Source: Sphaerodactylus townsendi (Eukaryota). Taken from it: a stretch of 64,000 nucleotides of DNA. Shown one piece after another: positions 18,527 to 45,653 of this stretch. Location: NCBI RefSeq assembly GCF_021028975.2, contig NC_059439.1, forward strand, positions 32,860,001 through 32,924,000. The letters are read 5' to 3'. The position numbers and the translations under genes are program-made. Under the pieces are notes generated by a model. The model saw only the letters and a list, made by a program, of their open reading frames with translations. It did no database searches and was not told where the DNA came from. Position 1 is the stretch's first letter. Every line of letters begins with the position of its first letter.

Positions 18527-19198
18527 ATAGGAACATAAGAACAAGCCAGCTGGATCAGACCAGAGTCCATCTAGTCCAGCTCTCTGCTACTCACAGTGGC
18601 CCACCAGGTGCCTTTGGGAGCTCACCTGCAGGATGTGAGCACTTAATGGTCTTCTCTTTGAAACATTGCTCTCGAGCACTACCTGGACCTGTTAAGGCAT
18701 TTGTTACAATCTCTCAGATCCAAAAAGAAGTTCAAGATTGGTAGCCATAGAATGCGACTTCTCACTCCCCGCTAAAATCTGTCCAGAAGCCCTTTTTAAA
18801 GCTATCCCAGGTTAGTGGCCCATCACCACCTCCTGCTGGCAGCATATTCCAAACACCAATCCTGCGTTAGCATTGAAGAGGAGTGTTTCGGCTTTTGTGA
18901 GTCCTAATTCTTCCCCAGCATTTTCAATGAATGCCCCCTGGTTCTAGTATTGTGAGAAAGAGAGAAAAATTTCTCTCTGTCAACATTTTCTACCCCATGC
19001 ATAATTTTATAGACTTCAATCATATCCCCCCTCAGACGTCTCCTCTCCAAACTAAAGCGTCCCAAACGCTGCAGCCTCTCCTCATAGGGAAGGTGCTCCA
19101 GTCCCTCAATCATCCTCGTTGCCCTTCTCTGCACTTTTCCTATCTCTTCAATATCCTTTTTGAGATGTGGCGACCAGAACTGAACACAGGACTCCAAG
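18527..19198 (-). mobile_element. CR1 LINE 3' fragment
   Basis: CVQFWSPHLKKDIE..VQRRAT..LPYEERL..SLERRRLRGDMI; (TTCTTATG)n tail. Confidence 0.9.
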
Positions 19199-20480
19199 TT
19201 TTTGGTTAATCAAAGAAGTTTCTGGTTGATCAAAGAAAGACCAGCCACAGGGGGCAGTCTCCCAAACTCGTCACAAAACTATAGTCCCCCGTGCTCAGCT
19301 CAGGCGGCGCTGTTTACAGGTACTATCCAGAGAATGCTGAGGTGGTCCTGAAAACCAAATATCCCTCTTCGGTCACCTTGACTGTGAGTGTAACAGGTTG
19401 TTAAGGAGAGGTAGATGGAGATAGCTGGCTACTCATTACAAGCATGTAAAACTGTGATTATCTATGAAAACATTGTAAGCAGAAAACCCATCACTTAGTT
19501 GCAGATAGTTGGCCTTTTGCCCAATGTTTTCATAGATTTCCTCAGATAGGTGGCGAGCAGTGGCGTAGCGCCCAGGGGTGGGGCGTGATACACCAGGCAT
19601 TTGCCGGTGCGTGGGCGTGCCGTGGGCATGGTGTGAGCGGGTGGGGGAATGGCAAGGGCACGGGGCGAATTCACGCCCTGGGTGCAGTTCCCCCTCGCTT
19701 CGCCCCGGTGGTGTCATAAATTAAGGAACATAGGAGAAGTTGAAAGGTTAGCAAATAAGATTAGATTTATTCAAAGGGAGAAAAAGAAAGATGTCTTTAA
19801 GATGCTTTGGCCATCTTAAGGGAANNNNNNNNNNNNNNNNNNNNNNNNNNNNNNNNNNNNNNNNNNNNNNNNNNNNNNNNNNNNNNNNNNNNNNNNNNNN
19901 NNNNNNNNNNNNNNNNNNNNNNNNNNNNNNNNNNNNNNNNNNNNNNNNNNNNNNNNNNNNNNNNNNNNNNNNNNNNNNNNNNNNNNNNNNNNNNNNNNNN
20001 NNNNNNNNNNNNNNNNNNNNNNNNNNNNNAGGTTTTTCTCTTTCTCCTCAAGAATAGGGGACATAAAATAAAAACAGGCTGAGTAAAGTCTCTTTTCCCA
20101 TCTCCTACAGTGTTTGTGTTGGATAGGAGACTGAATACCTGGAACGCTGCAGTTCAAATTTTACTTCTGCTACAAGCAAACAGCAATTTTAAAAATCTAT
20201 GAAATGTCAATGAAAATCAAAACTAGAGCAGCACTATTAGGAGAACATCATGAAACAAACCTTGCTGATTGTATTTGGTGAAATGTAAGAAAGCACTTAC
20301 GAAAGAAATTGAGCCATACAAAACAAGAAAAAATTAGAATCACGGAATTACGTATTTAAATGAAAAGGCGACACTTTTCATAGAGAAGGATTATGTGCAC
20401 TCAGTTGTTATTTTTATATCCTCTGATGTCCTCTCTCTTGCCTGCCATTGGTGCCTTACTCGGCAATGGTGAGATGTAGC

Positions 20481-21068
20481 CAGTGGTGGGATCCAAAAAT
20501 TTTAGAAACAGGTTCCCATGGTGGTGGGATTCAAACAGTAGCATAGCGCCAATGGGGCTGGGCAGGGCACGATGGGGGCATAGCTGGGCATTCCGGGGGC
20601 AGGGCATTAATAATTTCTCTGTTTCTGTAAAAAACTTTTACTGTAAAAAAAAGTTCCTAATTTCCAGCTGGTATCTTTCTGTCCATAATTTAAACTCATT
20701 ATAGCAAGTCCTATCGTCTACTGCCAACAGAAACAACTACTTCTCCTCTAATTGACTGCCTGTCAAATACTTAATACTTTCAAATACTTAATTTTGTTTC
20801 TAGAAATCAAAAGAAATATACTTTCTTTAAACACGGAACTTTACCATATTTCTAAAACATGTTTTTGAAACAGCCCAACAGGGAGAATTATCCCGTTTTC
20901 TACCTTCGCTAACCAGCCACATAGGAAACAACAGGACTTTATGATTTTTGGACCTAATGGGATTTCTAACGGAAAAGCAGACCCAATTAGTAACCCCCTC
21001 TCGGCACACACAAATAATTAGTAACCCACTCTCGGGAACTGGTGAGAACCTGCTGGATCCCACCTCTG
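20481..21068 (+). mobile_element. hAT MITE family A variant
   Basis: 8-bp TSD gatgtagc; similar to 59321-59882. Confidence 0.85.
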
Positions 21069-21668
21069 GATGTAGCCAACCCTTAGCTTACAGGCCTGGG
21101 GCAGTGGCTGGTTTCCTGTCTCTTTTCCCCTTTTCCTGAGTGGAGAAATCGCTGAGGAATTTGCTTTGCAAGACCCAAAAGCCCTGCCCCATTTGCAGTG
21201 GCACAATGAATTAGGCCTACGGACCCAAGACTGGCATTTTCAAATCCACATAATTCTGAGTGCACAAAAGACGTAGACCTGAGCCCATCAGACTGAGGAC
21301 CAGAGCTCTGTCCTTCTCCGCACATCCCCCCCCCTCTTCTTCAGAGAAGCCCTGGACATCAGCCCCCCCCCCCCACTAAGACCATGCTCTGTCCCTTTCT
21401 ACTGAAGATCTGGCAGCCCCACCAAGCAACGGAGGCTGGCTATGACCCTTCTTGGAAGGAGTGGAACCCCAAGCACATATCGGTGGATTAGAAATTAGGT
21501 GCCACACACACAAGAAAACACAAACACTAGTTTTTTTCATTTGCTGCAAGGATTTATTGGGTAAAGCAAAATAAAGCGAGGCACTAGCAAACACTCTTCA
21601 TCCTGATGACACAATGTTCCCTCCATATTACTGGGAGATGAATGGGGAAGGGAGGGGAATCTGTTGGG

Positions 21669-22167
21669 CAGTGATGGCGAACCTTTTTGAGACCGAGTGC
21701 CCAAATTGCAACCCAAAACCCACTTATTTATTACAAAGTGCCAACACGGCAATTTAACCTAAATACTGAGGTTTTCGTTTAGAAAAAGCGGTTGGCTCAG
21801 AGGTGTGCGTTACTCGGGAGTAAGCTTGGTGGTAGTCAGTGGCTTTGCTTTGAAGCATCCGTGCAACTCTTCCAATGGGTGGATCATGAGCCTAAGAGGG
21901 TTTAATCAGAAGCAAGCCCCATGGCCAGCAACCAAGCTTACTCCCAGGTAAAGGATCATGCTTCAGTTCTTCGCATGAAAATCAGTGAGGTTTAACAGTG
22001 CTTAACAGGGTTACCTACACTGCTTCCCCAAACTATGTCTTAGGTTTAATGCTAATAATTGACGCCAGCGGTCCAGGCCAGCCTAGATGTGTGTGTATGG
22101 GGGGAGTGCGACTCTGTTTGCTCGTGCCCACAGAGAGGGCACCCGTGCCATAGGTTTGCCACCACTG
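21669..22167 (-). mobile_element. hAT MITE family B
   Basis: Same family; TSD ctgt(t/a)ggg. Confidence 0.8.
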
Positions 22168-23392
22168 CTGTAGGGTGACTAGAGGAGAAGGGTTGTAACG
22201 CTTGTAAGGAACCCCAGAGGACAGGAGAAAACAACATCAGGAGGCTTGCGGTTACTTATATCTTTAAGGCAAAGCCTTGTTTGGGTCAATGGGCATTCCA
22301 TGTGGGGCTGCCAACTCCAGGTTGGGAGATTCCCGGAGATTTGTTGGTGGTGCCTCAGGAAGGCAGGGTTTGGGAAGCAGAAGGAGCTCTGAAGGATATA
22401 ACGTCCTAGAATCCACCCTCCAAGCTACCATGTTCTCCAGGGGGACTGATCACTTGCCTGGAGAACAGCTGGGATTCTGGATGATCTCCAGGTCCCAGCT
22501 GGAGGTTGGCATCTCCTATGGGTGGGACACAGGCATGACTGCAGAGACGTAAATAGTGCATGGCAATTAACGAAGAACTGGGCACTATGATTTTTTCAAA
22601 AGTGCCCAACACTTTTGACCACTCTGCTGTTAGTTAAGCTCAGCGGAAGATGACTCTTGAGGCAAATATGCCCTGCGGTGTTTGAAGCCCCTATTGCTCT
22701 TGGTTGTGAGAATTGTAGCTTCGGTGGACTGAAATTGAAGAAGAAGAAGAAGAAGAGTTTGGATTTATATCCCCCCTTTCTCTCCTGCAAGGAGACTCAA
22801 AGGGGCTTACAATCTCCTTGCCCTTCCCCCCTCACAACAAACACCCTGTGAGGTAGGTGGGGCTGAGAGAGCTCCGAGAAGCTGTGACTAGCCCAAGGTC
22901 ACCCAGCTGGCATGTGTGGGAGTGCATAGGCTAATCTGAATTCCCCAGATAAGCCTCCACAGCTCAAGCGGCAGAGCGGGGAATCAAACCCGGTTCCTCC
23001 AGATTAGAGACACGAGCTCTTAACCTCCTACGCCACTGCTGCTGTCAACTGAATATTGACACAGGTGATTTTATACCAGTCCCTCAACCATTTCAGTCCC
23101 CCCACCCCACCCCGGAATCCTGGAATTTCTCATTTGAAGACAGCACTGAGCATTCTTTAAGCTCCGTTTTATACATGAGCGATCTATAAGCTCCATTCTA
23201 TACAGCGACAAGTCCTGGGATTCTCGGGGGGAGAAAGAAGACCTGCTAAGTGAGTTTAAATGTGCTCTATGGAAATGCCCCAGAGATCCATTGTTGAGAA
23301 AGCATTAAGCGAAGCAGAGCTAGGTCGTGGCCGCTGCAGGATTTCCTTCGGTTTCTGGCTTCCTGCGGGTGCATCGTGTGGGCGGCTGCGGC

Positions 23393-23830
23393 CTACCGGA
23401 GTCCAGCGAGGTGAACAGGCATCCTGTTTACACAGGACACCCTAACTCTCCGGTTCTGTCGCCGGCCACGATAATTGCAATTAGGATAACGACCTCTACT
23501 GCGGCAGAGGGTGACACGATAACGCCGTCTGCTGTCATACCGATCCCGAGTGCGAGGCACCTTGGTCCCTCCCCCTCGGCAGATATGCTGAATGCTGCCG
23601 GGACTGCTATGGATGAAGGTGTTGGTGCGTTTGCAGGTGCGTCTCATCATGCCTCTCCGCTGCATCATGAGATTGCAGTAGGCGTTGGCGTTGGCTGCCT
23701 GGGTCTGAGGATGATCAATGTGCTTCCGTGCGAAATCCCGGTATCTGGCCCCTTCGCTGGACTGCAGCAGAAGAACAGCCAGAAGGACGGCCAAACGGAG
23801 CAGCAGCCAGGAGGAGATTTTCGGAGACAT
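23393..23830 (-). CDS. RNase A superfamily protein R3, very Arg-rich, 145 aa (true start MSPKISS inside the listed 230-aa ORF)
   Basis: Leader homologous to R2 and preceded by ctcccag...ccag-gATG acceptor; FARKH, CKRTNTF, PVHL; 6 Cys; 27 Arg. Confidence 0.95.
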   Translation of the reverse strand: MSPKISSWLLLRLAVLLAVLLLQSSEGARYRDFARKHIDHPQTQAANANAYCNLMMQRRGMMRRTCKRTNTFIHSSPGSIQHICRGGGTKVPRTRDRYDSRRRYRVTLCRSRGRYPNCNYRGRRQNRRVRVSCVNRMPVHLAGLR

Positions 23831-24289
23831 CCTGGTGGGACCTGGGAGACCCCCAGAAGAAGACAGGAAACATGAGGGTTGCTTCTCAAGCTTAAGGGTG
23901 ACAATGGGGGTTTCTACACAGCTGAAATATAATGGGCTGAGGAAGCTGGTTATCCCGTTTCGGGGAAGAATTTCACACAGGGCTCTTCCTTCAAAGAATT
24001 TCACACAGGGCTCTTCCAGCCAGTTGTATTTCTCTACCGAAAATAGCCCCGAGGGCAAGCCCTGAAATTGCACCCCCCCCCCCATGGGCAGGTCTTCCCC
24101 ATCTTGGAACCAGCTCTCCAGTGGCCAGGTCTACCATTATTTTCACTCACAGGTAACCAGCTCTCCAGAGGACTGGTCTACCCACCATTAAGAAGTATTG
24201 GTAGATTAGGTTTTCGTGTAGGCCAGGTCTACCCATTACTTTCAAAGGCAGGTAACCAGCTTTCTGGTGGCCTGGTCTACCCACTTTTA

Positions 24290-24291
24290 TT

Positions 24292-24350
<59 letters not shown>

Positions 24351-24352
24351 TA
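24290..24352 (+). repeat. (CAT)n microsatellite
   Basis: Direct reading. Confidence 0.95.
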
Positions 24353-25762
24353 TCATTCTCAATATTGATGATTATCATTATCNNNNNNNNNNNNNNNNNN
24401 NNNNNNNNNNNNNNNNNNNNNNNNNNNNNNNNNNNNNNNNNNNNNNNNNNNNNNNNNNNNNNNNNNNNNNNNNNNNNNNNNNNNNNNNNNNNNNNNNNNN
24501 NNNNNNNNNNNNNNNNNNNNNNNNNNNNNNNNNNNNNNNNNNNNNNNNNNNNNNNNNNNNNNNNNNNNNNNNNNNNNNNNNNNNNNNNNNNNNNNNNNNN
24601 NNNNNNNNNNNNNNNNNNNNNNNNNNNNNNNNNNNNNNNNNNNNNNNNNNNNNNNNNNNNNNNNNNNNNNNNNNNNNNNNNNNNNNNNNNNNNNNNNNNN
24701 NNNNNNNNNNNNNNNNNNNNNNNNNNNNNNNNNNNNNNNNNNNNNNNNNNNNNNNNNNNNNNNNNNNNNNNNNNNNNNNNNNNCCCGAAGGGCTCTGGGC
24801 GGTGTACAACAAAATCACAACTAAAACAATGTGCACAATAAATAAGTGGTAAATAGTTAAAATACATAACTCAGAATAAGCAGCATTCTAAAACCCAGTA
24901 AAACAATATTAATAATACTAATGATGGCTCCCAGTCCCAAGGCCGGGAGGGGACAGACAGTCTACCCATTGTGTCTTAATGGCAGGTAGATCAGCCCTCT
25001 GAGTGACACAGCAGCCTGGGCGCCCCTGGGAAAGTTGTGCCCAGGGCTCACACCTGACTTGCCCCACCCTAAATACGCCACTGTCCTCCCTGGGCTCCAC
25101 ACTCAAAATCCCCAGGAATTCCCCAACCATTCTATTACCCCCACTTTCCCGCCATGTGGCTCTGAAACAGCACAGCTGCATTTTCAGAGCACTCAAAACT
25201 TTATTTCCCTTTCAAACATATCGTGTCAGTTCCCAATTCTGTCCGTTGCTTTCTCTTAGGGGTTTCTGGGTCTCTTTCCCCCATAACAAGAATACCTGAA
25301 AGGACAACCCATCCTTTCCTTCATGTCTGCTGTGTTCATGGGCAGGAATCCTCACAGGGAATCTTTGGAGCTCTTCCACCCTCTGTTGATCCTCACCTGA
25401 GAATGAGTGGGCGCCCCTTGAAAACAGTCAGCTGGTACTTTCCACATCTTAACATGAGAGTTGCTGGCACCTGAACAGCCATTTTGTCCTCTTCAGGACA
25501 CAGTATAGTTTTTGGTCTCCCCAAATATGCTGCATATTGTCAGAGATCAGCTCTGAAGTGAGTTAATTACACAATCCTCTGAAGTGTTGAGCCAGTGAAG
25601 GCTGATTCTACACTTTGTTTATCACGACAACGCCCCACTGAATTTGACTTACTCTGAGGTAAAGATCGTATCCTTATAAAGTGATACCTGGCACATTTAT
25701 CCAGGCTGTCAATCCCACTGAATTTAATGAGATTTACTTCTAGCTACATGGACGAAGGACTG

Positions 25763-26075
25763 CTGTGGCGTAGGAGGTTAAGAGCTCGTGTATCTAATCT
25801 GGAGGAACCGGGTTTGATTCCCAGCTCTGCCGCCTGAGCTGTGGAGGCTTATCTGGGGAATTCAGATTAGCCTGTACACTCCCACGCACGCCAGCTGGGT
25901 GACCTTGGGCTAGTCACAGCTTCTCGGAGCTCTCTCAGCCCCACCTACCTCACAGGGTGTTTGTTGTGAGGGGGGAAGGGCAAGGAGATTATCAGCCCCT
26001 TTGAGTCTCCTGCAGGAGAGAAAGGGGGGATATAAATCCAAACTCCTCCTCCTCCTCCTCCTCTTCTTCTTCTTC
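25763..26075 (+). mobile_element. tRNA-derived SINE, Squam3-like (young copies also at about 4667-4945, 6340-6630, 10790-11058, 22737-23043, 35737-36035, 37709-37971, 47881-48163, 48951-49231, 58858-59140)
   Basis: A-box tggcgtaggagg, B-box ggtttgattccc, about 300 bp, (CTT)n tail, many near-identical copies. Confidence 0.85.
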
Positions 26076-26542
26076 TGGCATACAGTGGAATCCCAAGCAC
26101 ATTTATTGAGAGGAATATTCTTTTTTGTTCTTTTTCCCTGCAGCCAGAGTGGTGGACTCTAATCTGGAGACCCAGTTTTGTTTCCCCACTCCTCCACATG
26201 AAGCCTGCTGGGTGACCTTGGGCCAGTCACAGTTCTCTCAGAACTCTCTCAGGCCCACCTGCCTCACAGGGTATCGGTTGTGGGGAGGGAAAGGGAAGGT
26301 GATTGTAAGCTGTTTTAAGACTCCTTAAAGGTAGAGAATCACAGGGTATGTGACCCAACTCTTGTTCGTCTCGTCAAAATAAAGTCTAGATCTGATAGAA
26401 GTGGTAAAGGTTGCTTCATGGTTTTGTGCCACCACTGCAAAGACCCTGCCTCTGGTATCCGCCGCCCCCTGATCTCTGAAATTAGGAACTCTTGAAGCGA
26501 TTTCATACAGGAGAATTTAAGCCCAGATCATAGGCTCCTCTA

Positions 26543-26740
26543 ACTTACCCACGGTTGGTCTTGCCTGATTTGATGAACACCTGAAGATGCTGAAGGATGG
26601 ATTTTGCACTCCCAGGGCTCTTTCTCAACCTGCCCTCTGAGATTATATAGATTTCTGTCGGTTCAGGGGCAGGGTCAAAAAAGGAGGAACGTTCAGCCAC
26701 TTGCCACATCAGGAATGTGAAAGAATGGCGCAAGGGGGGG
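26543..26740 (-). promoter_or_regulatory. Promoter and non-coding exon 1 of R3
   Basis: Reverse-strand ctatataa at 26643-26650, donor GTAAGT at 26548-26543; inverted together with R3. Confidence 0.75.
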
Positions 26741-26979
26741 ATGAAGGTTTCCACAGATATTTTCTCTGGTGGCTTCTTGGATCCCCGAAATAACAGACAT
26801 TTACTTCCCGCACTTCAAAAAAGCTAAGTTGAGAAATGGTATCTTGCCCAAAACCTCTTAACCGGGAGGGAGTCCAGGACAAGAAAGAAGAACTTGCTTG
26901 TGAGAGGTCGGGACCAGTGATGGGATTCAAATAGTTTAACAACCGGTTCCGTTATGGGATTCAAATAATTTAACTGGTT

Positions 26980-27215
26980 TGTCGAAGGCTTTCATGGCCG
27001 GGATCACTGGGGTGCTGTGTGGTTTCTGGGCTGTATGGCCGTGTTCTAGCAGCATTCTCTCCTGACGTTTCGCCTGCATCTGTGGCTGGCATCTCTGAAG
27101 GTCCTCTGATCCTCTGAAGATCCTCTGAAGATGCCAGCCACAGATGCAGGCGAAACGTCAGGAGAGAATGCTGCTAGAACACGGCCATACAGCCCGGAAA
27201 CCACACAGCACCCCA
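26980..27215. mobile_element. Penelope-like element terminal fragment forming an 87-bp inverted repeat, nested in a small MITE
   Basis: Arms 27008-27094 and 27129-27215 with one mismatch; flanking duplication aatttaactggtt; tcgaaggctttcatggccg terminus recognised as squamate PLE. Confidence 0.75.
27121..27163 (+). ncRNA. Minimal type I hammerhead ribozyme motif
   Basis: UCCU-CUGAAGA-U-GCC(13-nt loop)GGC-GAAAC-GUC-AGGA: both conserved core boxes, stem I UCCU/AGGA, stem II GCC/GGC, palindromic ACGU helix III. Confidence 0.7.
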
Positions 27216-28257
27216 ATTTAACTGGTTGTTTACAAGCACCATTTTAACAACCGGTTCCGCCGAAGCAGTGCGAACCGGCTGAATCCCGCCACTGGTTGGA
27301 ACCAAACTCACAAAGGTATCTTGGCCTGGATGTGTTTCAGCTTCAGGATCTTGCTCAGGTGACGATGGGGAACGTGGCCGGACAAGATCAGCTACGGCAG
27401 GTGGCAGGTGACTTGACCAGGTCTGGTACGAATTGCAGTAGCCCTATTTTCTTTCGGGAGGCTGTGGCCAGATTCCCTTCCCTGGTCCAGGTTTCCCTGG
27501 CTCACATGTATTATTGTGCCTGTGGTTTCTTAGTGTCACTCAGTGCGAAACTCTCTGGCCCCTTCTGCACACGCAAAATAATGCATTTTCAAACCACTTT
27601 CACAACTGTTTGCAAGTGGATTTTGCTATTCCGCACAGCTTTAAAGAGCACTGAAAGCAGTTTGAAAGTGCATTATTCTGCATGTGCGGAATGAGCCTCT
27701 GTTTAGAAACCTTCACCTTCTCCAGGGTTGTTCGTGTGCACTGGCCCCCGATACTTCATGAAGCTGTTGGCGTCCCCCTATTTTATAATCACCCCTTCAT
27801 CCCAGTGATAAAAACTATAAGGCTCCTTCCGCACATGCAGAATAATGCACTCTCAAACTGCTTTCAGTGCTCTTTGAAGCTGTGCGGAATGGCAAAATCC
27901 ACTTGCAAACAGTTGTGAAAGTGGTTTGAAAACGCATTTTGCGTGTGCGGAAGGGGCCTAAGACTCAACTTCTGTTGCCCGCTTTTTGATGTCTTACTCA
28001 GAAATTAGGAGATGTCCTCACCCCTTCACCATCCGTGCCTTGAGCAAAGGCTGGTTTCCTGTCAGTTATCCCGGGACCCCGTGGAGAAACAGCTCAGGGC
28101 CTTTTGCAAACTCTAACAGATTTGTGCCTTGGAAGATGCAGCAACAGTGTAGCAACGAACCTTTGAATTGGGTTTTTGCAATCTCAAGAATAGGGGACAT
28201 GAAATAAAAAAACCTTCAATCCAGGCTGAGTAGAGTCTCTTTTCCCATCTCCTAAAG

Positions 28258-28643
28258 CAGCGGTGGCGAACCTATGGCACGGGTGCCAGAGGTGGCACTC
28301 CGAGCCCTTTCTGTGGGCACACGTGCACAGAGTTCATCATGTGGGGGGGGATGGAAAATCACCCCCACACACACACATTTAGGCTAGCCTGTGGACGATC
28401 CTTTACCTGGGAGTAAGCTCGGTTGCTGGCAATGGGGCTTGCTTCTGAGTAAACCCTCCTAGGGTCGTGATTCACTCATTCGAAGCATTGCATGGTTGCT
28501 TCACCAAGCTTACTCCTGAGTAACATGCGCCTCGGAGCCAACCATTTTTACCTCAGTATTCAGGTTAAATTGCCGTGTTGGCACTTTGCGATAAATAAGT
28601 GGGTTTTGGGTTGCAATTTGGGCACTCGGGTTTGCCATCACTG
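28258..28643 (+). mobile_element. hAT MITE family B, internally deleted
   Basis: TSD tcctaaag. Confidence 0.8.
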
Positions 28644-28825
28644 TCCTAAAGAGAGGGGCTGGGTTGGATAGGAGTTCGAACGCCTGGAATACTCAAGTTC
28701 AAATTTTACTTCTGCTAAAAGCGAAAATTTATCAGCAATTTAAAAAGTCGACGAAAAGTCAACGAAAATCCTAAACTGGAGCAACATATTAAGAGAACAA
28801 CACGAAACAAACCTTGCTGGTCGTA

Positions 28826-29023
28826 TCCCCCCTTGCGCCATTCTTTCACATTCCTGATGTGGTAAATGGCTGAATGTTCCTCCTTTTTCAACCCTGCCCC
28901 TTAACCGACAGAGATCTATATATAACTCAGAGGGCAGGTTGAGGGAGAGACTTGAGCGGGCAAAACCCATCCCTCAGAATCTGCAAGAGTCCATCGCTCA
29001 GGCAAGACCAACCGTGGGTAAGT
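28826..29023 (+). promoter_or_regulatory. Promoter and non-coding exon 1 of R4
   Basis: ctatatataa at about 28916, GTAAGT donor at 29018. Confidence 0.75.
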
Positions 29024-29218
29024 CAGAGGAGCCCGTGATCTGGGCTTGAATTCTCCTGTATGAAAATGCTCCAAAAAGAGTCCCTAATTTCAGAGATCAG
29101 GGGGGTGGGTACCAGAGGCAGGGTCTTTGCAGTGGTGGCACAAAACCACGAAACAACCTTTACCACTTCTCTGAAATCTAGACTTTATTCTGACAAGACA
29201 AAGAAGAGTTGGGTTACA

Positions 29219-30087: not shown

Positions 30088-30675
30088 GACAACAACAACA
30101 AGCCTTTATTGGCATACAAAACAGGACAAAATTTCAAAGTAAAACAAGATTAAAAAACACAGTTAAAATTACTAATTTCCAGTATAAAATTTGCAACAGT
30201 CAAAAGAGCACATCAGAGCTGTTCAGGAGGTTGGGTATCTTGTAACACTCTTGCCCCTGAGAACATTGCAAGAAAATAGAATTCATATATTTCATGCGTA
30301 TCTTATCATATTTAGGGCATAAAAACAGAGAATGGTCAAGTGTTTCAACTGTAACCAGATCACAAGAACAAACCCTTTTAGGACGTTCCATATTCTTAAA
30401 TCTTCCCTCCAGGAGAGCTGATGGCAGCACGTTACATCTTGCAGTAGCCAAAGCTCTCCTCTGGGTGGGATTAATCAGCAGCCGAAGATATGTTGCCATA
30501 ATTCCACGCTCGCATGGGATTAATAAGATAGTCGGGGAGCAGGTTGTCTTGGCTGCAAGAGTCAAATAATGAAAATCAAGATCCAAGAGCCTATTCTTAA
30601 CTAGTCTGAAGGCTGCCACCTTTGTGAGCATAAGGAGTGATTCCAAAGGGAAACCAATAGCTTCAACCTTTTGAA
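30088..30675 (-). mobile_element. RTE-X-like LINE 3' fragment in the R4 intron
   Basis: ARCNVLPSALLEGRF..RVCSC..VETLDH.LFLCPKY zinc-knuckle C-terminus; AATAAA plus (TTG)n tail; gatgg(g/a)gaagac at both flanks. Confidence 0.75.
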
Positions 30676-31621
30676 GATGGAGAAGACCTGTTCATTGGGT
30701 GTGTGTATGTGTGTGTGTGCGCAATTTCAGGGCTTGCCCTCGGTGCTATTTTCTGTAGCTATGCATCTGTGGGAAGGGAGAGACCTCAGCGTGGTATGAC
30801 GTCATAGAGTCCACCATCCAAACCAACAGTTTTCTCCAGGGGAGCTCATCTCTGTAGTCTGGAGAGTAGGGGCAAATACAGCCAATTGTAATTCCCGGAA
30901 GCTGGCATGGGATAGGACCACTTTGTGCTGCAAGCAGTGGCGTACCACCCATTGGGCAAACTAGACGTGGGATCCCCGGGTGCCCACCAGGTGCAAGTGG
31001 AATCCTAATTATTTGTGTGTCCAAGTGGAAGTACTAGTGGGCCTGGTTTTCCATTAGAAATCCCATTAGATTTAAAAATCATAAAAGTCCTGCTCTTTCC
31101 TATCAGTGGCTGGTTGGCAAAGAAAGGTGGGACAAGCAAGGAGTTTCCTGCCATCATGGAGGCCGTTTAAAAACATGTTTTAGAAATATGGTAATGTTCC
31201 TTGTTTAAGGAAAGTATCCGCCCCGATGCCCAGAGCAACCCAATCCCCGGAGGATTTGACCAGAGCAACTTCAGTATCTGACAGACGTGCAATCAGAGCA
31301 ACCCCCAAGTTGTTTCTGTTGGCAGTAGAGCGATGGGCTACCCTCTGCCTATTTGGGGGGGAGTGCCGGCATCAAGCCCCCCAGGTTTTGCCCACCCAGC
31401 GCCATTGGATTCGCCACTGTTTGAGTGCATGCCACTGGCTGCAAGTGGAACCTGTTAGAAGCTTTTTGGATCCACCGCACAATGGAAACCTTCATGCATG
31501 TAGCAAAACAGCACCTCTGAAGAAAAGAAATAGTTTTAAGACCTTCTTAGTCACCCTTAAACTTGAGAGGCAGCCCTCATGTTTCCTTTCTTCTTCCGGT
31601 GGTCTCCCAGGCGCCGCTAGG

Positions 31622-32047
31622 ATGTCTCCGAAAATCTCCTTCCATCTGGCCGTCCTTCTGGGAGCGGTTCTACTGCAGTCCGGCGAAGGAACCAGATACC
31701 GGGATTTCGCAAACAGCCACATCGAACCTCTGGGACCCAGGAACGAAAAACTCAGCGCCTACTGCTACCGCATGATGCGGGAGAGAGGCCTGAGCAGACG
31801 CACGTGCAAACCCTCCAACGCCTTCATCCACAGTAGTGCCAACAGTATTCAGCTAATCTGCCGTGGGGCAGGGACCCGGGTGCACCCCTGGCGGAATATG
31901 TACGACAGCAGGCAGAGTTTCCGTGTCACCACCTGCCACAGTAGAGGCCGTTTCCCTAGATGCCATTATCAAGGTGAGCAACGGAACGGGAGAGTTCGTG
32001 TGGGCTGCAGAAACGGGGCGCCTGTTCAGTTCTACAGACTCCGGTAG
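31622..32047 (+). CDS. RNase A-like protein R4, predicted catalytically inactive, 141 aa (true start MSPKISF inside the listed 273-aa ORF)
   Basis: Signal peptide with a 4-codon in-frame deletion relative to R2; 6 Cys; FANSH, CKPSNAF, PVQFY (His119 to Gln, CAG at 32027-32029); ORF intact. Confidence 0.9.
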   Translation: MSPKISFHLAVLLGAVLLQSGEGTRYRDFANSHIEPLGPRNEKLSAYCYRMMRERGLSRRTCKPSNAFIHSSANSIQLICRGAGTRVHPWRNMYDSRQSFRVTTCHSRGRFPRCHYQGEQRNGRVRVGCRNGAPVQFYRLR

Positions 32048-32140
32048 GGCGTAGCCATGAACGACGCCAGAAACTGCAGGAAGCCAAAAACCGAATTAGG
32101 CTGTTGTGTGCAGCGGTTATAGTTTATTGTAGTTTTAGTA

Positions 32141-32372
32141 CCGTGTTTCCCCGAAAATAAGACAGTGTCTTATATTAATTTTTGCTCCCAAAGATGCGCT
32201 ATGTCTTATTTTCAGGGGATGTCTTATATTTCTGTGTTCTGTTCGTCGGGCATGCTTCCAAACAAAAACTTTGCTATGTCTTACTTTTGGGGGATGCCTT
32301 ATATTTCGCACTTCAGCAAAACCTCTACGACGTCTTATTTTCCGGGGATGTCTTATATTCGGGGAAACTGGG
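32141..32372 (-). mobile_element. Tc1/mariner-type MITE (copies at 40714-40945 and 49777-50009)
   Basis: TIR cc(g/c)tgtttcccc.aa.ataagac; TA flanks. Confidence 0.8.
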
Positions 32373-32882
32373 TATTTATCAAGGTTGTAGCTTTTGTTTC
32401 ATTGTAAATGTTATCGAGTTAAGTATTACTGTTAATGTTATGGAATTATGTAGTGATAACGTTAATGTTACGTAGTATGTATTGGTACATTGGAAACGTA
32501 TGTTGTGAATGTACTGATATATCACTATTTGGTATGGATATATTGATGTTCTGATATGCTGGTGACTATGCTGTTAATATACTGGTTTTGCTGATAATGT
32601 ATTTGGTAGTCTAGATCTAGTTTGTTGTACGTTGTTATGTATTAATATAGTGCTGTTGTTATTATTATTAGTATATTGTTAGGTTTGTAGTGTTGGCACC
32701 ATCTTTATTTTAGTCTTATGTATTTACTAGTCATAATGTTATAATGTATTTTATTTACTTGTGTTGGTACCGCCCTGAGCCAAGTTAGTGCTAGAATAGA
32801 AAGTTGTTCTTTGTTTTCTTCCATGTAAACTCTCCCTAATAGTTAGTAAATCTCTTTTATAAAAACCAGCAACTCTGCCTTA

Positions 32883-33023
32883 GGCTCCTTCCGCACATGC
32901 AGAATAATGCACTTTCAAACTGCTTTCAGTGCTCTTTGAAGCTGTGCGGAATGGCAAAATCCACTTGCAAACAGTTGTGAAACTGGTTTGAAAACGCATT
33001 ATTTGGCGTGTGCGGAAGGGGCC
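32883..33023 (+). mobile_element. PIF/Harbinger-like MITE of about 140 bp (other copies near 27557-27697, 27820-27958, 45222-45372, partial 62789)
   Basis: TIR ggc(t/c)ccttccgcac; 3-bp TTA/CTA TSDs. Confidence 0.75.
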
Positions 33024-33297
33024 TTAGTCTCCTTTTTGCTACTCTGCTAAGTATATTAAGTTAAACAGTCCAACATGTTATGTTCTTATGTTCTTAACAA
33101 TCCCTGCCTTCCTAAGGCACCACCTCCAAATTTCTGGGAATCTCGCAACCTGGAGTTGGCAGCCCCACTTGGAGTGCCCATTGATCCCAACAATTTTAAG
33201 TATTTGCCTAAAAAATAACTAGCCTCAAGCCTCCTGATGTTGTTTTCTCCTGCCCTCTGGTGTTCGTTACAACCCTTCTCCACCGCTCACCCAAGAG

Positions 33298-33954
33298 CAG
33301 TGGTGGCGAACCTATGGCACAGGTGCCAGAGGTGGCACTCAGAGCCCTCTCTGTGGGCACATGCAAACAGAGTCCCCCCCCTCCCCGCATCTAGGCTGGC
33401 CTGGGCTGCTGGGCTCGATTATTAGCATTAAACCTAAGACCTAGGCTCCTTCCGCACATGCCGAATAATGCACTTTCAAACTGCTTTCAGTACTCTTTAA
33501 AGCTGTGCGGAATAGCAAAATCCACTTGCAAACAGTTGTGAAAGTGGTTTGAAAACGCATTATTTTGCGTGTGCGGAAGGGGCTCTAGTTTTGGGGAAGC
33601 AGTGTAGGTAACCCTGTTAACCGCTTTTAAACCCCACTGATTTTCATGCGAAGAACTAAAACGCAATTCTTTACCTGGGAGTATGCTCGGTTGCTGGCAA
33701 TGGGGTTTGCTTCTGAGTAAACCATCCTAGGGTCGTGATTCACCCGTTGGAAGAGTTGCACGGTTGCTTCAAAGCAAAGCCACTGACTACCACCAAGCTT
33801 ACGCCTGAGTAACGCATGCCTCAGAGAGCCAACTGTTTTTTCTAAACTGAAACCTCAGTATTCAGGTTAAATTGCCGTGTGGGCACTTTGCGATAAATAA
33901 GTGGGTTTGGGTTGCAATTTGGGCACTCGGTCTCGAAAAGGTTAGCCATCTGTG
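33298..33954 (+). mobile_element. hAT MITE family B with nested Harbinger-like MITE (about 33444-33585)
   Basis: Family similarity; nested element flanked by CTA. Confidence 0.8.
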
Positions 33955-34637
33955 CCTTAGAGATTCCCCTCCCTTCCTCATTCATCTCCCAGGAACACGA
34001 AGGGAACACTGTGTCAGGATGAAAAGTGTTTGCTAGTGCCTTGCTTTATTTTGCTTTATCCAATAAATCCTTGCAGCAAATGCAAAAACGAGTGTTTGTG
34101 TTTTCTTGTGTGTGTGGCACCTAATTTCTAATCCACCGAGATGTGCTGGTCTTTCCGTTCCTTCCGAGAAGGGTCGTAGCCAGCCTCCGTTGCTTGGTGG
34201 GGTTGCCAGATCTTCAGCAGAAAGGGACAGAGAGTGGTCTCAGAGGGGGGCTGATGTCCAGGGCTTCTCTGAAGAGGGGGATGTGTGGAGCTCTGGTCTT
34301 CAGGCTGATGGGCTCAGTTCTACGTCCTTTCAACTCTAAGAACTATGAGCATTGCAAAATGCCAAATGTAGGTTTGTAGGCCCGATTGTGCCCCTGGGAA
34401 CATGGAGGGAACAGGGCTTTTGGGTCTCACAAAGCAAATCCCTCAGCGATTTCTCTACTCTGACAGGGGGGGAAAGACAGGAAACCAGCCGCTGCCCCAG
34501 GCCTGTCAGCTAAGGGGTGTAGAACATGTCACAATTGCTGAGTAAGATGCCAAAGCCAGGCAAGAGAGAGGACATTGCACAATCTGGATGGTAGAGAAGG
34601 CAGAGAACCCCTCAAGTGGCAACTGCACCCACAACCA

Positions 34638-35135
34638 TTTTATTTATTTATTTATTTATAATTGGTTTTATATACCGCCCCTCCCCCGAAGGGCTCTGGG
34701 CGGTGAACAACACAATAAAACAATAGTTACAATAAAACCCCATTAAAACAGCAATCAATAATGGTATATTGGCATCCAATCGTAAAAACAGAACTTCATA
34801 GATCCACCCTGGAAAATAAAACAGAGAAGCGGAGAACCCAGAATGTAAGGGAAAGGAGGGGGAAAGGGGAGGGGGCATCAGCGGCCGGCCCCTCCAAACG
34901 CCCGGTGGAACAATTCGGTCTTACAGGCCCTGCGGAACTCTCCAAGATCCCGCAGGGCCCGGAGAGTTGGTGGTAGCGTGTTCCACCAGGCAGGGGCCAG
35001 GGCTGTAAAAGCCCTGGCCCAGGTAGAGGCCAGCCGCATCATTGAGGGGCCAGGGACCACCAGTAAATTGGCCTCTAACGAACGTAGAGGCCGTGTAGGG
35101 ACATATGGGGTAAGACGGTCCCGAAGGTACGAAGG
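34638..35135 (-). mobile_element. L2 LINE 3' fragment
   Basis: YLRDRL.PY.PTRPLRS..RAF..AP..WN.LP..F...KT.LF motifs; (TAAA)n tail. Confidence 0.85.
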
Positions 35136-35429
35136 TGAGAATAAGTACCCAACCTGAGGTACCATGAGAATAAGCCCCCCACCTGAGCTCAACCCCAAAT
35201 GTTGTGATCCAGGAAGAGGTCTTTGCAGAGTTAAGATGGCGGGCATCCACCTCAGCTGACTGCTGTAGGAAAGTCCAGCACTCTTAAGGTGAACACAACA
35301 GCTGCTGGGGAAACACAGAATGAACACAATTCTGGGGAAACATTTCAACAAACACATTTCAACAAACACACTTCAACAAACACATTTCAGTGGAAATCTG
35401 CAAAAAAAATTAAACACAAAAAAGCATCC

Positions 35430-35595
35430 TGTATGTTGAAACCACCTGACACTTCCTCTTTTTTTTTAAATCCTGCCCCTGCACCATCTGAGATCTATAT
35501 AATACTTCAGAGTCCAGGCTGAGGGAGAGACTGGGACGGGCAAGATCCATCCCTCAGCATCTCCAGCGCTCACACAGGTCGAAACTTGGGTAAGT
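35430..35595 (+). promoter_or_regulatory. Promoter and non-coding exon 1 of R5
   Basis: cacttcctcttt (PU.1 consensus, reverse) at 35450, tatataa at 35496, GTAAGT at 35590. Confidence 0.75.
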
Positions 35596-36311
35596 CTGAG
35601 AAGGCCGTGACCTGGCTTTCATCTCTTCTCCCACACGAAGCTGTGCCAGTCAGTAACTTTGAAGAATGGTTCTGTAGACATGCAGGAGGCAAACTCTTGC
35701 AACCCAACCAGGCAACAAATGCCAGCATTGAAAGCAACAGTGGCATAGTGGTTAAGAGCAGGTGCACTCTAATATGGAGAAACAGGTTTGATTACCCCGC
35801 TCTGCCAATTCAGCTTATCTGGAGGCTTATCTGGGGAACTAGATAACTTATCTGGGGAGGCTTATCTGGGGAACTAGATTAGCCTGTGCAATCCAAAACG
35901 CGCCAGCTGGGTGACCTTGGGCTAGTCACAGTTCTTCGGAACTCTCTCAGCCCCATTCACCTCACAGGGTGTTTGTTGTGGGGGGAGGGGGGGGAGATTG
36001 TAATCTCTGAGTCTCCTAAAGGAGAGAAAGGGGGTANNNNNNNNNNNNNNNNNNNNNNNNNNNNNNNNNNNNNNNNNNNNNNNNNNNNNNNNNNNNNNNN
36101 NNNNNNNNNNNNNNNNNNNNNNNNNNNNNNNNNNNNNNNNNNNNNNNNNNNNNNNNNNNNNNNNNNNNNNNNNNNNNNNNNNNNNNNNNNNNNNNNNNNN
36201 NNNNNNNNNNNNNNNNNNNNNNNTCATCATCTTCATTGTTCCAGAGTGGCCACTAGAACCCGTGCTCAGCCAAGGACTAAGGGAGGATAAGAGAGTTCAA
36301 AAGACCCCATT

Positions 36312-36386
<75 letters not shown>
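36312..36386 (+). repeat. Compound (GT)n(GA)n microsatellite in the R5 intron
   Basis: Direct reading. Confidence 0.95.
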
Positions 36387-36388
<2 letters not shown>

Positions 36389-36996
36389 TTCGTTGCCATG
36401 AACACACAACAGATATGGAGGAAGAGTTCAAAATCCTTTCAGTTCTTATTAGGGGGGAAAGAGATCCAGAAAACCCCAACAGAAAAGAAAGTAAAAGAAA
36501 GACTCAGGAACTACAATCTAGACATATTGGGTGTGAAAAAGTATTTTTTTGTAAGTCTGAATCTTCAGGTTTCCACACATTCTGTTTCAGAGGAGTTCTG
36601 CACATTATGATGAATTGGGAGGGGGGCTGGAATGCTGGACTGGACCACTTTATGTTGCAGGTGGGGGGTATCTGTGGAAACAAATGGGAAAAGCTACAGC
36701 GCATGCCGTCAAGTTGGTTTGGCTCCTGTGGGAAAGACGTAGCCTAGCCTTGCATCGTCCTGTCCAAGGGGCTTTTTCCTATTTGAGGAGAATATTTCAA
36801 AACAATCACATAGGCACACCCCACCTTCATTCTGAAGTGGTACAGTCTGGCATGCCTGTATCTTCTCCCTCTGGAGCCAAAGCATTGTCCTTTACAGATA
36901 ATAAATGCAAAAAATAAATCAACAAATAATGTCACCATAAAGAGAAGCGATAGTTTTCACATTTCCTTCTTCCGTTTTCTCCCAGACCCTCCCAGG

Positions 36997-37422
36997 ATGT
37001 TTCTGAAAATCTCCTCCTGGCTGCCGCTCTGCTATTTTGCTGTCCTTCTGGTGGCTTTCCTGGGACAGTCCAGTGATGGGGCCACCTACGCGGATTTCGC
37101 ACAGAGGCACATCGATTACCCCCGAACCCCAGCCTCCAACCCCAACGCCTACTGCAATCACATGATGGCGCGGAGAGGCATGACCAACGGCAGCTGCAAA
37201 GCGAAAAACACCTTCATCCATGACGATCCCAGCAACGTTCAGAATATCTGCAGCGGGAAAGAGTCTGGGAAGCTTTGTGACAGCAATCAAAGCTTCTTCC
37301 TCACTTTCTGCAGCAATAGAGGTCGTTATCCTAACTGTAATTATGTCGGCACACAAATGACCAAGAGAGTTCAAGTGGGCTGTGTCGGCGACCTGCCTGT
37401 TCACTTCCAAACTGACCTGTAG
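36997..37422 (+). CDS. RNase A superfamily protein R5, 141 aa
   Basis: Signal peptide ending SDG; FAQRH, CKAKNTF, PVHFQ; 7 Cys; NGS and NQS sequons. Confidence 0.95.
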   Translation: MFLKISSWLPLCYFAVLLVAFLGQSSDGATYADFAQRHIDYPRTPASNPNAYCNHMMARRGMTNGSCKAKNTFIHDDPSNVQNICSGKESGKLCDSNQSFFLTFCSNRGRYPNCNYVGTQMTKRVQVGCVGDLPVHFQTDL

Positions 37423-40345: not shown

Positions 40346-41324
40346 TCCTGATCTTGTTTTCTCCTGCCCTCTGGTGTTCATTACAAGTGTGATAGCCCTT
40401 CTCCTCAGCACACCTTACAGATCAGCTTGGAACGGCTCCCTTCATTCCTCATTCATCTCCCAGCAATACAGAGGGAACGTTGTGTCAGGATTCTGGGCGG
40501 AAGAACCAAAAACTCCCATTCTTTGGTCTAACTGTACATTCTTTGGTCTAACTATGCATTATGAAATAGAGGCAGTAAGTTTGTAAAAAGGTTTTAGTAG
40601 GTATTAATAAAATAGAATAGGTAGGCATTACATTATATAGAATTCAAGGTTAAGATGGCTCAGTTAGAAATAGTAAGAATTAATTGGTTCTTGCTAAAGA
40701 AGTTTAGAATATACCCTGTTTCCCCTAATATAAGACATCCCCCAAAAATAAGACATAGTAGAGGTTTTGCTGAAGTGCTAAATATAAGGCATCCCCCGAA
40801 AGTAAGACATAGCAAAGTTTTTATTTGGAAGCATGCCTGACGAACAGAATACAGAAATATAAGACATCCCCTGAAAATAAGACATAGAGTATCTTTGGGA
40901 GCAAAAATTAATATAAGACACTGTCTTATATTCGGGGAAACACGGTATGTACTTTGGTTCATAAACTCTGGATCACTCAAACTTAGAAAGAGGCCTCAGT
41001 TGCACCCTGCCCTGCAAATGTGCAGACAGGAAAATAAGGAAAAAGGATAAAAATTAAGTTAAGGGAATTTCAAGTGTCAGACAAACCTCCGCACAAATCT
41101 CTCGCTTAGTAACTTACACCAGACTTACACCACTGTAGATACAGGAAAGAAATATAACAAACAGGTAACAAATACCAGGAGGCCTTGATAATTAAACAAG
41201 GCCGAAAGCCAAATGTAGAATTCTATGTCTGAACTCAAATAGAGGGAAAGAAATGTTATGCAGGACATTCAGAAACGCAGAAAACAATTGTTAGATTTAA
41301 GAAGACATTTAGAAAGATAGTTCC

Positions 41325-42091
41325 ATGGGAATGTCAACTCAATGCATGGCAGCTGTGAAAAAGGCAAACTCTATGCTGGGGATAATTAGGAAAGGAATTG
41401 AGAATAAAACTGCAAAGATTGTCATGCCCTTACATAAAGCAGTGGTGCGACCGCACTTGGAGTACTGTGTTCAGTTTCGGTCGCCACATCTCAAAAAGGA
41501 TATTGAAGGGATAGAAAAAGTGCAGAGAAGGGCAACGAGGATTATTGAGGGACTGGAGCACCTTCCTTATGAGGAAAGGCTGCAGCGTTTGGGACTCCTT
41601 AGTTTGGAGAGGAGACGTCTGAGGGGGGATATGATTGAAGTCTATAAAATTATGCATAGGGTAGAAAATGTTGACAGGGAGAAATTTTTCTCTCTTTCTC
41701 ACAATACCAGAACCAGGGGGCATCCATTGAAAATGCTGGGGGGAAGAATTAGGACTAATAAAAGGAAACACTTCTTACGCAACGTGTGATTGGTGTTTGG
41801 AATATGCTGCCATAGGAGGTGGTGATGGCCACTAACCTAGATAGCTTTAAAAGGGGCTTGGACAGATTTATGGAGGAGAAGTCGATTCATGGCTACCAAT
41901 CTTGATCCTCTTTGATCTGAGATTGCAAATGCCTTAACAGTCCAGGTGCTCGGGAGCAACAGCCGCAGAAGGCCATTGCTTTCACATCCTGCTTGTGAGC
42001 TCCCAGTGGCACCTGGTGGGCCACTGCGAGTAGCAGAGTGCTGGACTAGATGGACTCTGGTCTGGTCCAGCTGGCTTGTTCTTATGTTCTT
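41325..42091 (+). mobile_element. CR1 LINE 3' fragment
   Basis: KKANSMLGII..VRPHLEYCVQF..YEERL motifs; ttcttatg tail. Confidence 0.9.
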
Positions 42092-43871: not shown

Positions 43872-44306
43872 ATGTTTTCGAAAACCTCCTCCTGGCTGCT
43901 GCTCTGCTATTTTGCTGTCCTTCTGGTGGCTTTCCTGGGACAGCCCAGTGATGGGGCCAACTACGCGGATTTCGCACGTAAGCACATCGGTTATCCGAAA
44001 ACCGCAGCTGACAACCCCAACGCCTACTGCAAAGTCATGATGAAGGACAGAGGCATGACCGACGGCAGCTGCAAAGCGAACAATACCTTCATCCATGACG
44101 AGCCCAGCAACATTCAGAATATCTGCAGCGGGGGAGGTACCAGGTGGTCTGGGAATCTCTATGACAGCAGACAAAGTTTCCCTCTCACTTTCTGCCGCAA
44201 TAGAGGTCGTTATCCTAAGTGCAATTACATCGGCACGGAAATGACCAAGAGAGTCCGTGTGGGCTGTGTGAAGGGGTTGCCTGTTCACTTCCAAACCGAC
44301 CTGTAG
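43872..44306 (+). CDS. RNase A superfamily protein R6, 144 aa
   Basis: Signal peptide; FARKH, CKANNTF, PVHFQ; 6 Cys; closest to R5. Confidence 0.95.
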   Translation: MFSKTSSWLLLCYFAVLLVAFLGQPSDGANYADFARKHIGYPKTAADNPNAYCKVMMKDRGMTDGSCKANNTFIHDEPSNIQNICSGGGTRWSGNLYDSRQSFPLTFCRNRGRYPKCNYIGTEMTKRVRVGCVKGLPVHFQTDL

Positions 44307-44430
44307 GCCGAAGCAAGCCGAAGGAAATATTTCAGCAGCGACGACCTAGCTCTGCTTTGCTTAATGCTTTCTCAACGACGGATCTCTGGGACATCTCTGT
44401 AGTGCACCTTAACCTCGTTTAGCAGGTCTT

Positions 44431-44662
44431 AAGAACATAAGAACATAAGAACTAGCCTGCTGGATCAAACCAGAGTCCATCTAGTCCAGCACTCTGCTAC
44501 TCGCAGTGGCCCACCAGGTGCCTTTGGGAGCTCACATGCAGGAGGTGAAAGCAATGGCCTTCTGCTGCTGCTGCTGCTCCTGAGCACCTGGTCTGCTAAG
44601 GCATTTGCAATCTGAGATCAAGGAGGATCAAGATTGGTAGCCATAGATCGACTTCTCCTCCA
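44431..44662 (-). mobile_element. CR1 3' end inserted in the R6 3' UTR
   Basis: (aagaacat)n start; aggtctt TSD. Confidence 0.85.
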
Positions 44663-45653
44663 TAGGTCTTCCTTCTCCCCCCGAGAAACCCAGGACTTGT
44701 CCTTGCATAGGACAGGGCTTATAGATCGCTCATGTAGGATGCTGAGCGCAATCATCAAACTAGAAATCCCAGGATTCTTTGGATGGGGGAGCTATAACAG
44801 TGGAGGGAGTAGAATAAAATCGTCTGTGTGGACAGAGGCTGGAAAACCTGGTTCACAGATACGCTTCCAGCTGTTGATCGAATGAATGAGCTGCTATCGC
44901 AGGGGAAAGGCCAACGGGTGAGCTTAATAGAGCTTTTCATGTGTGTCAGTTATTAAAGGCCTGGATGTTCACACCTGTTAGTGCATCTCTTGGGGTTTCT
45001 TTTCCCTTCTTGACTTTCCCCAGCCTTGTGAATGGGAGACCAGCGGAACTGACTGCACTCCCTTGAAAAGAATTGTGCTTGCAGTGATATCGGAGTTGAA
45101 GACTGGAGGGTCTCATCTGCGAACTCACCTCTAAAACAGATCACTCGATGCTGCTTTTGTTTTTCTATTTTATATCACAGTTTACATGTGGAGACCTGAA
45201 TCTGAGTCCATTAGCCACTTAGGCCTTTTCCACACATGCAGGATAATGCGCTTTCAATCCCCTTCCAATGCACTTTGCAGCTGGATTTGACTGTGCGGAA
45301 TAGCAAAATCCGCTTGCAAACAATTGTGAAAGCGGACTGAAAGTGTATTATTCTGCATGTGCGGAAGGGGCCTTAAAGAACCATAAATTTTCCCACCATG
45401 TAAGATTTCACAAGTCAAAGGTCACTTTGTTCGATACCTGGGGAGTTTTTCTGGTTTTTAAAAAGCTGCTGAAGTTGAATCAAGTGCTCCTTGCACAGAC
45501 TAACTCAGCTACCCTGAAATGTGATCTATTTGATTCACAGGTTTTTGGATTTGAATGGCCTCATTTTTACCATTCAGCACTCAACATTATGCACACATAC
45601 AAACAAACATAGATGCTTCTCACTCACCCCTTTCATATGTTCTCCCACACTAA

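Follow-up and report, generated by a model that had tools for sequence, protein, structure and literature searches.

The RNase A gene cluster

The DNA analyzed here, a 64-kb window from the dwarf gecko Sphaerodactylus townsendi, harbors eight ORFs of the RNase A family, named R1–R8. A tblastn search with all eight ORFs against the 64-kb window yielded no ninth RNase A copy; the window contains eight assembly gaps.

6699–7145, + strand: R1, RNase A-family ORF
15429–15845, + strand: R2, paralogue with intact triad, mature net charge +21
23393–23830, − strand: R3, paralogue head-to-head with R4, intact triad, mature net charge +26
31622–32047, + strand: R4, RNase A-family ORF of 141 aa
36997–37422, + strand: R5, RNase A-family ORF
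43872–44306, + strand: R6, RNase A-family ORF
50117–50551, + strand: R7, RNase A-family ORF
56718–57158, + strand: R8, RNase A-family ORF

Here, R1 represents a conserved angiogenin-like gene, which groups with proteins of Gekko, Heteronotia and Euleptes. R2–R8 are fast-evolving duplicates, which in a tree of 61 rows fall into a starred clade together with other squamate proteins termed 'ribonuclease pancreatic-like'. R2 and R3 are extremely Arg-rich (pI 11.7–11.8) with intact triads, R3 having the top charge among the listed set. The mature chains of R2, R5 and R8 (seven Cys each) and R7 (nine) display odd numbers of Cys, which may form extra disulfides or covalent dimers. Furthermore, exon 1 of R7 (near 47659–47749) contains a tandem duplication of about 30 nt that the paralogues lack.

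About 2.4 kb separate the first exons of R3 and R4 (26564 and 29002), which are in inverted orientation inside a region of 87–90% inverted similarity. This head-to-head arrangement suggests an inverted duplication and possibly a shared control of both genes. The promoter/exon-1 blocks of R2, R3 and R4 (three blocks, window positions 12287–29077) are 87–90% identical, compared to 73–79% for the coding regions; as far as such identities go, a conserved promoter with a diverged coding region is the pattern of fast-evolving defence genes.

The public gene models P0003 (R4+R5, 31622–37422) and P0009 (R6+R7, 43872–50551) are wrong fusions. P0003 lacks the C-terminus of R4 and therefore hides the change at His119 described below. 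Short ORFs at 30200–30631, 41325–41789 and 60228–60686 presumably are fragments of LINE reverse transcriptases, which they resemble.

The R4 gene and its protein

In the RNase A superfamily, the coding sequence is located in one exon behind a non-coding exon. R4 has this layout, with the following features:

28917..28925, + strand: TATA box, aligning with a motif upstream of exon 1 of R2, R3 and R5–R8
28945..29017, + strand: non-coding exon 1, from the alignment of six paralogues; start approximate, placed from the TATA box
29018–29019, + strand: GT donor, aligned with six paralogues; the junction agrees with the public model P0003
31609..31610, + strand: AG acceptor, from the sequence and paralogue comparison; exon 2 begins at 31611
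31622..32047, + strand: coding sequence, RNase A family; coding indel listed in none of four sequencing runs
31622..31690, + strand: signal peptide, residues 1–23, cleavage placed by alignment
31715–31717, + strand: Gln11 equivalent, changed to Ser (alignment)
31718..31720, + strand: His12 equivalent, kept (alignment)
31808..31810, + strand: Lys41 equivalent, kept (alignment)
31820..31822, + strand: Thr45 equivalent, changed to Ala (GCC), unique among the eight genes; motif CKPSNAF
32027..32029, + strand: His119 equivalent, changed to Gln (CAG), unique among the eight genes; runs X1 and X3
32033–32035, + strand: Asp121 equivalent, changed to Tyr (alignment)
32048..32095, + strand: leftover of the ancestral 3′ UTR; beyond it, unrelated AT-rich sequence takes the place of the remaining UTR and its poly(A) signal
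32139..32375, no strand assigned: short repeat with inverted ends, 94–95% alike to copies at 40711–40947 and 49775–50011

An earlier note on this DNA had described an intact ORF with signal peptide, six Cys, TATA box, exon 1 and splice sites, all of which were found and aligned with the paralogues. The block of promoter and exon 1 is intact and shares 87% identity with its counterparts in R2 and R3, the hydrophobic leader aligns with the paralogues and the six Cys occupy conserved columns. Compared to R2 and R3, to which R4 is 57% identical, its signal peptide carries an in-frame deletion of four residues.

R4 belongs to the Pfam family PF00074 (E 6.7e-24). An AlphaFold2 model, built from an alignment of the eight genes (pLDDT 87.9), matches best the turtle egg-white RNase 2zpo, with an rmsd of 1.3 Å over 119 columns and a TM score of 0.92 by target, and also matches angiogenins. 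Thus, domain, predicted fold, signal peptide and Cys number (6–8 structural Cys in the superfamily) are those of an RNase A protein. The mature chain (from residue 24) contains 22 Arg and 2 Lys versus 2 Asp and 4 Glu, which reproduces the previous count of six acidic residues, and has a net charge of +18 and a pI of 11.3.

Two lesions in the active site

Residue equivalences were taken from a sequence alignment of R4 to RNase A and the paralogues. The His12, Lys41 and Asn44 equivalents are kept, whereas the His12-Lys41-His119 triad is incomplete and the CKxxNTF motif is absent. The earlier note had counted four coinciding active-site changes, at His119, Thr45, Gln11 and Asp121. The roles it had assigned to these residues agree with the literature (PMC2582337; PMC6794472), and all four changes are present in the DNA. 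Nevertheless, four is an overcount, since Gln11 and Asp121 are variable among homologues and only two of the four changes affect conserved positions. Gln11 is Gln in 120 of 204 homologues and in four of the seven other cluster genes, Asp121 is Asp in 79 of 204 and in two of seven, and intact cluster neighbors bear Lys or Arg at position 11 and Ala, Gln or Glu at position 121. An Asp121 counterpart has likewise been described in few reptile sequences (PMC6794472). Ser11 and Tyr121 were therefore rejected as signs of a dismantled site.

The two remaining changes stand out. Of the mature chain, 21 columns are conserved in at least 80% of 200 homologues; the only ones lost in R4 are Thr45 and His119, and the same two are lost out of the 26 columns invariant in the other seven cluster genes; in an alignment of 13 subfamily proteins, four of 27 conserved columns are lost. 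Each other cluster gene has lost zero to three otherwise invariant columns, none of them catalytic. The chance that both losses would fall within the five catalytic or substrate columns is 10 in 210, calculated post hoc. As judged from these residues, a loss of catalysis in R4 is well supported.

An inherited cationic surface

The earlier note had further regarded R4 as a repurposed pseudoenzyme. The predicted loss of catalysis is well supported by the sequence, but repurposing is unsupported, since the Arg-rich surface is ancestral. Proteins with His119 present reach a mature net charge of +21 (R2), +26 (R3), +22 (Euleptes), +21 (Heteronotia) and +20/+22 (lacertids), and His119 is likewise in place in cationic orthologues from a snake and a turtle (+19 each) and from a crocodile (+17). 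A net charge of +18 or above is found in 18 of 201 homologues, and R4, with +18, lies at the low end of its Arg-rich subfamily. Because neighbors and orthologues with intact catalytic residues are equally or more cationic (+17 to +26), the Arg-rich surface is, on this comparison, the ancestral state of the subfamily, inherited and not gained, and a gain of charge after the loss of catalysis was rejected. If anything, R4 seems to have shed some charge; being less positive than R2 and R3, it displays no sign of selection for more. Across the homologues, those without His119 have a median net charge of +12 versus +7 for the others (P 0.027, rows not independent).

A proposed role for R4

Taken together, we consider it somewhat more probable than the contrary that R4 is an RNase-dead duplicate of an Arg-rich lizard RNase A, which is likely still secreted and would act via its inherited cationic surface. 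The duplicate has exchanged His119 for Gln and Thr45 for Ala and has kept the frame, the six Cys and the other conserved residues. Without the general acid His119, it would presumably be unable to cleave RNA at a useful rate. Catalysis would be supplied by the intact neighbors R2 and R3, thereby freeing R4 from it, which would represent subfunctionalization and not invention. The 22 Arg would bind anionic bacterial envelopes and permeabilize them, as catalytically dead mutants of RNase 7 and Ang4 do, or R4 could bind RNA or heparan sulfate via the kept His12/Lys41 groove. This putative antimicrobial or nucleic acid-binding activity is deduced from the charge and from mammalian RNases: RNase 7 H123A, described as ribonuclease-deficient, keeps killing bacteria (PMC4813274), as does H12A of mouse Ang4 (PMC9207454). 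That RNases lacking His119 can persist is suggested by a turtle clade with Arg119 (see below).

Decay or continued selection

Less probably, R4 would be a duplicate that was disabled only recently in the course of birth-and-death turnover. Over the greater part of its history it would have worked as an RNase, before the loss of His119 and of the 3′ UTR with the poly(A) site, and it would now be drifting, with no stop acquired so far. The lost 3′ end is the main support for this reading. A 3′ UTR is common to R2, R3 and R5–R8, and the similarity of R4 to it stops about 50–70 nt after the stop codon; the remainder was not found within the 64-kb window. Due to this, R4 is left without the ancestral poly(A) signal, which is located at +306 to +318 in R2, R3 and R7. 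The nearest AATAAA of R4 lies at 34062, with weaker hexamers at 32576–33427. The repeat at 32139..32375 appears to be MITE-like (our own label).

Four of the seven sequencing runs covering this stretch were compared (X1, X3, X4 from organism B and X5 from organism C; X2, X6 and X7 lie outside the comparison). All four share the shortened signal peptide, no coding indel being listed, so the contigs represent R4 and not R2 or R3. The replaced 3′ tail is common to X1, X3 and X4, whereas the X5 contig continues into the ancestral UTR after 32056. Hence, the replacement, and with it the damage, is recent. Decay would further fit the deletion in the signal peptide and the long branch of R4. For this whole branch, a distance split gives dN of about 0.21, dS of about 0.25 and an omega of about 0.8, indistinguishable from near-neutral evolution or from other paralogue pairs; pairwise dN/dS among R2–R8 ranges from 0.6 to 1.2 and does not set R4 apart from its neighbors.

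On the contrary, no structural residue is lost, the promoter and splice sites are intact, and 19 of the 21 conserved residues are kept over that distance, which shows that the fold was constrained during most of the R4 branch. The variants among the runs point in the same direction. Of 52 rows of differences 40 are listed, and 21 of these lie in the R4 coding sequence: 12 synonymous, 9 replacement, none nonsense and no indel, with an omega of about 0.3. Two matched nulls predict 6.1 or 7.5 synonymous changes among the listed rows instead of 12 (P 0.006 and 0.031). Without the single row found only in X5, 11 of 20 listed changes are synonymous (P 0.010), which places the excess inside the lineage in which Gln is present or probable. 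If unlisted rows are counted as replacements, P rises to 0.035 (4 rows), 0.11 (8) and 0.24 (12). The lack of nonsense changes is weak evidence, since only 45 of 1260 possible single changes are nonsense; from the variation observed, only about 1.4 nonsense hits are to be expected, so the open frame proves little. Overall, these data provide moderate evidence that the R4 protein is under continued selection.

The Gln codon among the sequencing runs

The His119 to Gln change, given in the earlier note as CAG at 32027–32029 and to be confirmed in reads, recurs in two runs: contig 5 of X1 has no difference over 31950–32083 and hence carries the codon, and contig 9 of X3, which spans 31480–32140, has 16 differences, all listed and none in the Gln codon. 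Gln119 is also probable in X4, for which 26 of 27 differing places are listed, none in the His119 codon, one G>C being unlisted. For the second haplotype of X1 and for X5, whose differences are listed in part, either Gln or His may be encoded here. The companion change, Thr45 to Ala (GCC at 31820–31822), lies in a conserved column and is unique to R4 in the cluster.

Improbably, Gln119 would be a null allele segregating beside His119 alleles, with the selection signal stemming from active copies. Such an allele would find room in the second haplotype of X1 (contig 6), of whose seven differences in 31950–32083 four are unlisted (for X1, two G>C places are also missing from the list), and in X5, which retains the ancestral 3′ end and has 14 of 30 differences unlisted; in addition, contigs drop rare variants. 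Nevertheless, the unlisted G>C could be any of 28 G's in 31980–32053 or lie further 3′, X3 displays Gln outright, the listed places of X4 spare the codon, and Thr45Ala is reverted in no listed row.

X1 is heterozygous in 31950–32083. Letters of its second haplotype recur in organisms B and C, which hints at introgression, gene conversion or balanced alleles of old date. The window sequence itself resembles a mosaic of the two X1 haplotypes at 31726/31730.

Very improbably, His12 and Lys41 would leave R4 with a weak or altered RNase activity, its B1 pocket being opened by Thr45Ala, sufficient to nick tRNA-like substrates as angiogenin does. In RNase A, Thr45Ala broadens rather than abolishes specificity; a literature search on this substitution found nothing. 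His12, Lys41 and Asn44 are kept in R4, and 16 of 26 homologues without His119 keep both His12 and Lys41. Angiogenin functions at an activity 10^5–10^6 lower compared to RNase 1 (PMC11383283). However, Gln is unable to act as a general acid, and RNase 7 H123A is described as ribonuclease-deficient (PMC4813274).

Finally, a sequencing or assembly error, for which one could invoke the eight gaps and the mosaic look at 31726/31730, was rejected and is practically negligible, as contig 5 of X1 and contig 9 of X3 both carry the codon.

Loss of His119 among RNase A homologues

The homologue set comprises 204 well-formed rows, after 14 of 258 were dropped as duplicates or longer than 260 aa and 40 of 244 because they were fragments or aligned poorly; R4 served as the seed of the searches, and the distant mammalian RNases 9–13 were not specifically sought. 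His119 is replaced in 26 of the 204 (Arg 13, Gln 8, Tyr 3, Phe 1, Val 1), as opposed to only two for His12, and single losses amount to 25 for His119 versus one for His12 (rows not independent). This bias could come solely from the hydrogen bond between His12 and Thr45, which would make His12 structurally needed; such a structural bond has been described (PMC2582337). Within the 26, Thr or Ser45 is kept in 23.

Arg119 in tortoises, Carettochelys and Pelodiscus belongs to one clade, Gln119 also occurs in Pelodiscus, Chelonoidis, Sphenodon (tuatara) and perch, and further losses are present in four Heteronotia genes (P0075, P0123, P0144, P0177), Euleptes, reedfish, turkey and a marsupial; those of Heteronotia and Euleptes carry Arg119. 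In the 61-row tree of a chosen subset, rows without His119 are scattered over about ten positions; several of these are at forks that do not resolve or belong to long branches. As far as this tree resolves, the loss in R4 appears separate from the others. The turtle Arg119 clade (Carettochelys, Gopherus, Chelonoidis) is starred (100/98), with Pelodiscus P0119 as sister, and is near-identical across Gopherus and Chelonoidis; it is therefore probably an old, maintained pseudoenzyme. Its rows (P0115, P0119, P0125, P0218–P0222) generally keep His12 and Lys41.

As to whether orthologues share the substitutions, a check proposed in the earlier note, no orthologue of R4 was found outside the genus, and the other homologues without His119 stand at separate places in the tree. 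A single-sequence search returned only R4 among 14 candidates, two profile searches yielded 58 and 47 proteins, and a representative search 228, of which 150 were listed; none of those listed exceeded 57% identity to R4, considering normal-length, unfused forms.

His119 loss is thus not unusual among RNase A homologues, and the broader His119-biased pattern is a more interesting lead than R4 itself. A rather doubtful reading of it would make R4 one case among RNase A pseudoenzymes with a 'half-site', a class present in reptiles and further vertebrates, which would repeatedly have dropped His119 and kept His12. Such cationic proteins might attach to RNA or to microbial polyanions, leave them uncut and serve as carriers, opsonins or decoys beside active paralogues. 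As part of that doubtful reading, the class would be so far unrecognized; a literature search, for which most subscription papers were beyond reach, found no report on gecko RNase clusters or on reptile RNases lacking His119.

Comparison with known systems

The closest relatives of R4 are the Arg-rich squamate 'ribonuclease pancreatic-like' proteins, which form with it a starred clade (99/99, rows in tree) and share 49–57% identity, the same charge and six Cys (Euleptes P0020, Heteronotia P0019/P0224, Gekko P0223, Eublepharis P0226, lacertids P0021/P0022, snakes P0038/P0227). In contrast to R4, they keep CKxxNTF and His119, with the exception of Heteronotia P0075, which separately has Arg119 and Met41. 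The other homologues without His119 resemble R4 in keeping His12 and six Cys and are often cationic; they differ in mostly keeping Thr/Ser45 and in their tree places, and are known here as database predictions alone.

The nearest concept is that of the 'functional pseudogenes' of primate RNase 8 (PMC3295680), in which, as in R4, a crucial catalytic residue is replaced in a full-length frame, raising the same question of decay versus a non-catalytic role. RNase 8 loses the first His (His to Asp in tamarin) or a Cys, whereas R4 loses the second His and Thr45. According to that study, the pattern is apparently unique to RNase 8 among the lineages studied. R4 combines frame and catalytic replacement in the same way; as to constraint, it has a synonymous excess (P 0.006–0.03, 40 of 52 rows listed) and a lost 3′ UTR.

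The mammalian RNases 9–13 also keep a signal peptide and three disulfides and are, by prediction, without catalytic activity, and human RNase 9 has been reported to be antimicrobial (PMC11383283; PMC12602997). As described in these papers, they are epididymal, 15–30% identical to canonical RNases and devoid of active-site motifs. R4 is unlike them a young duplicate, 57% identical to its intact neighbors, with His12 and Lys41 kept; membership in this group was rejected, since R4 nests among intact squamate RNases in a tree built without RNases 9–13.

With a net charge of +18 and a pI of 11.3, R4 has a high positive charge, as do cationic antimicrobial RNases. Like ECP/RNase 3, RNase 7 and mouse Ang4 (PMC4813274; PMC9207454), it is strongly cationic and presumably secreted. 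Unlike R4, which is not orthologous to them and whose killing is putative, these proteins have a complete triad in nature, and bacterial killing without catalysis has been obtained with engineered mutants of the RNase 7/Ang4 type (PMC4813274; PMC9207454).

Meaning for the RNase A family

According to a long-standing idea, RNase A proteins serve in the first place as scaffolds for host defence, with catalysis as an option. Engineered mutants, together with a small number of RNase 8 genes of primates, provide most of the evidence so far. Within the homologues compared, His119 loss of this kind is recurrent in reptile ribonucleases, and R4 beside R2 and R3 represents a natural matched set from the same subfamily, similar in charge and differing in the presence of His119. 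If R4 is silent, it would be a case of ordinary gene-family turnover. If it is expressed and kills bacteria, it would be a clean natural test of the defence idea, with the turtle Arg119 clade as an older test of this kind.
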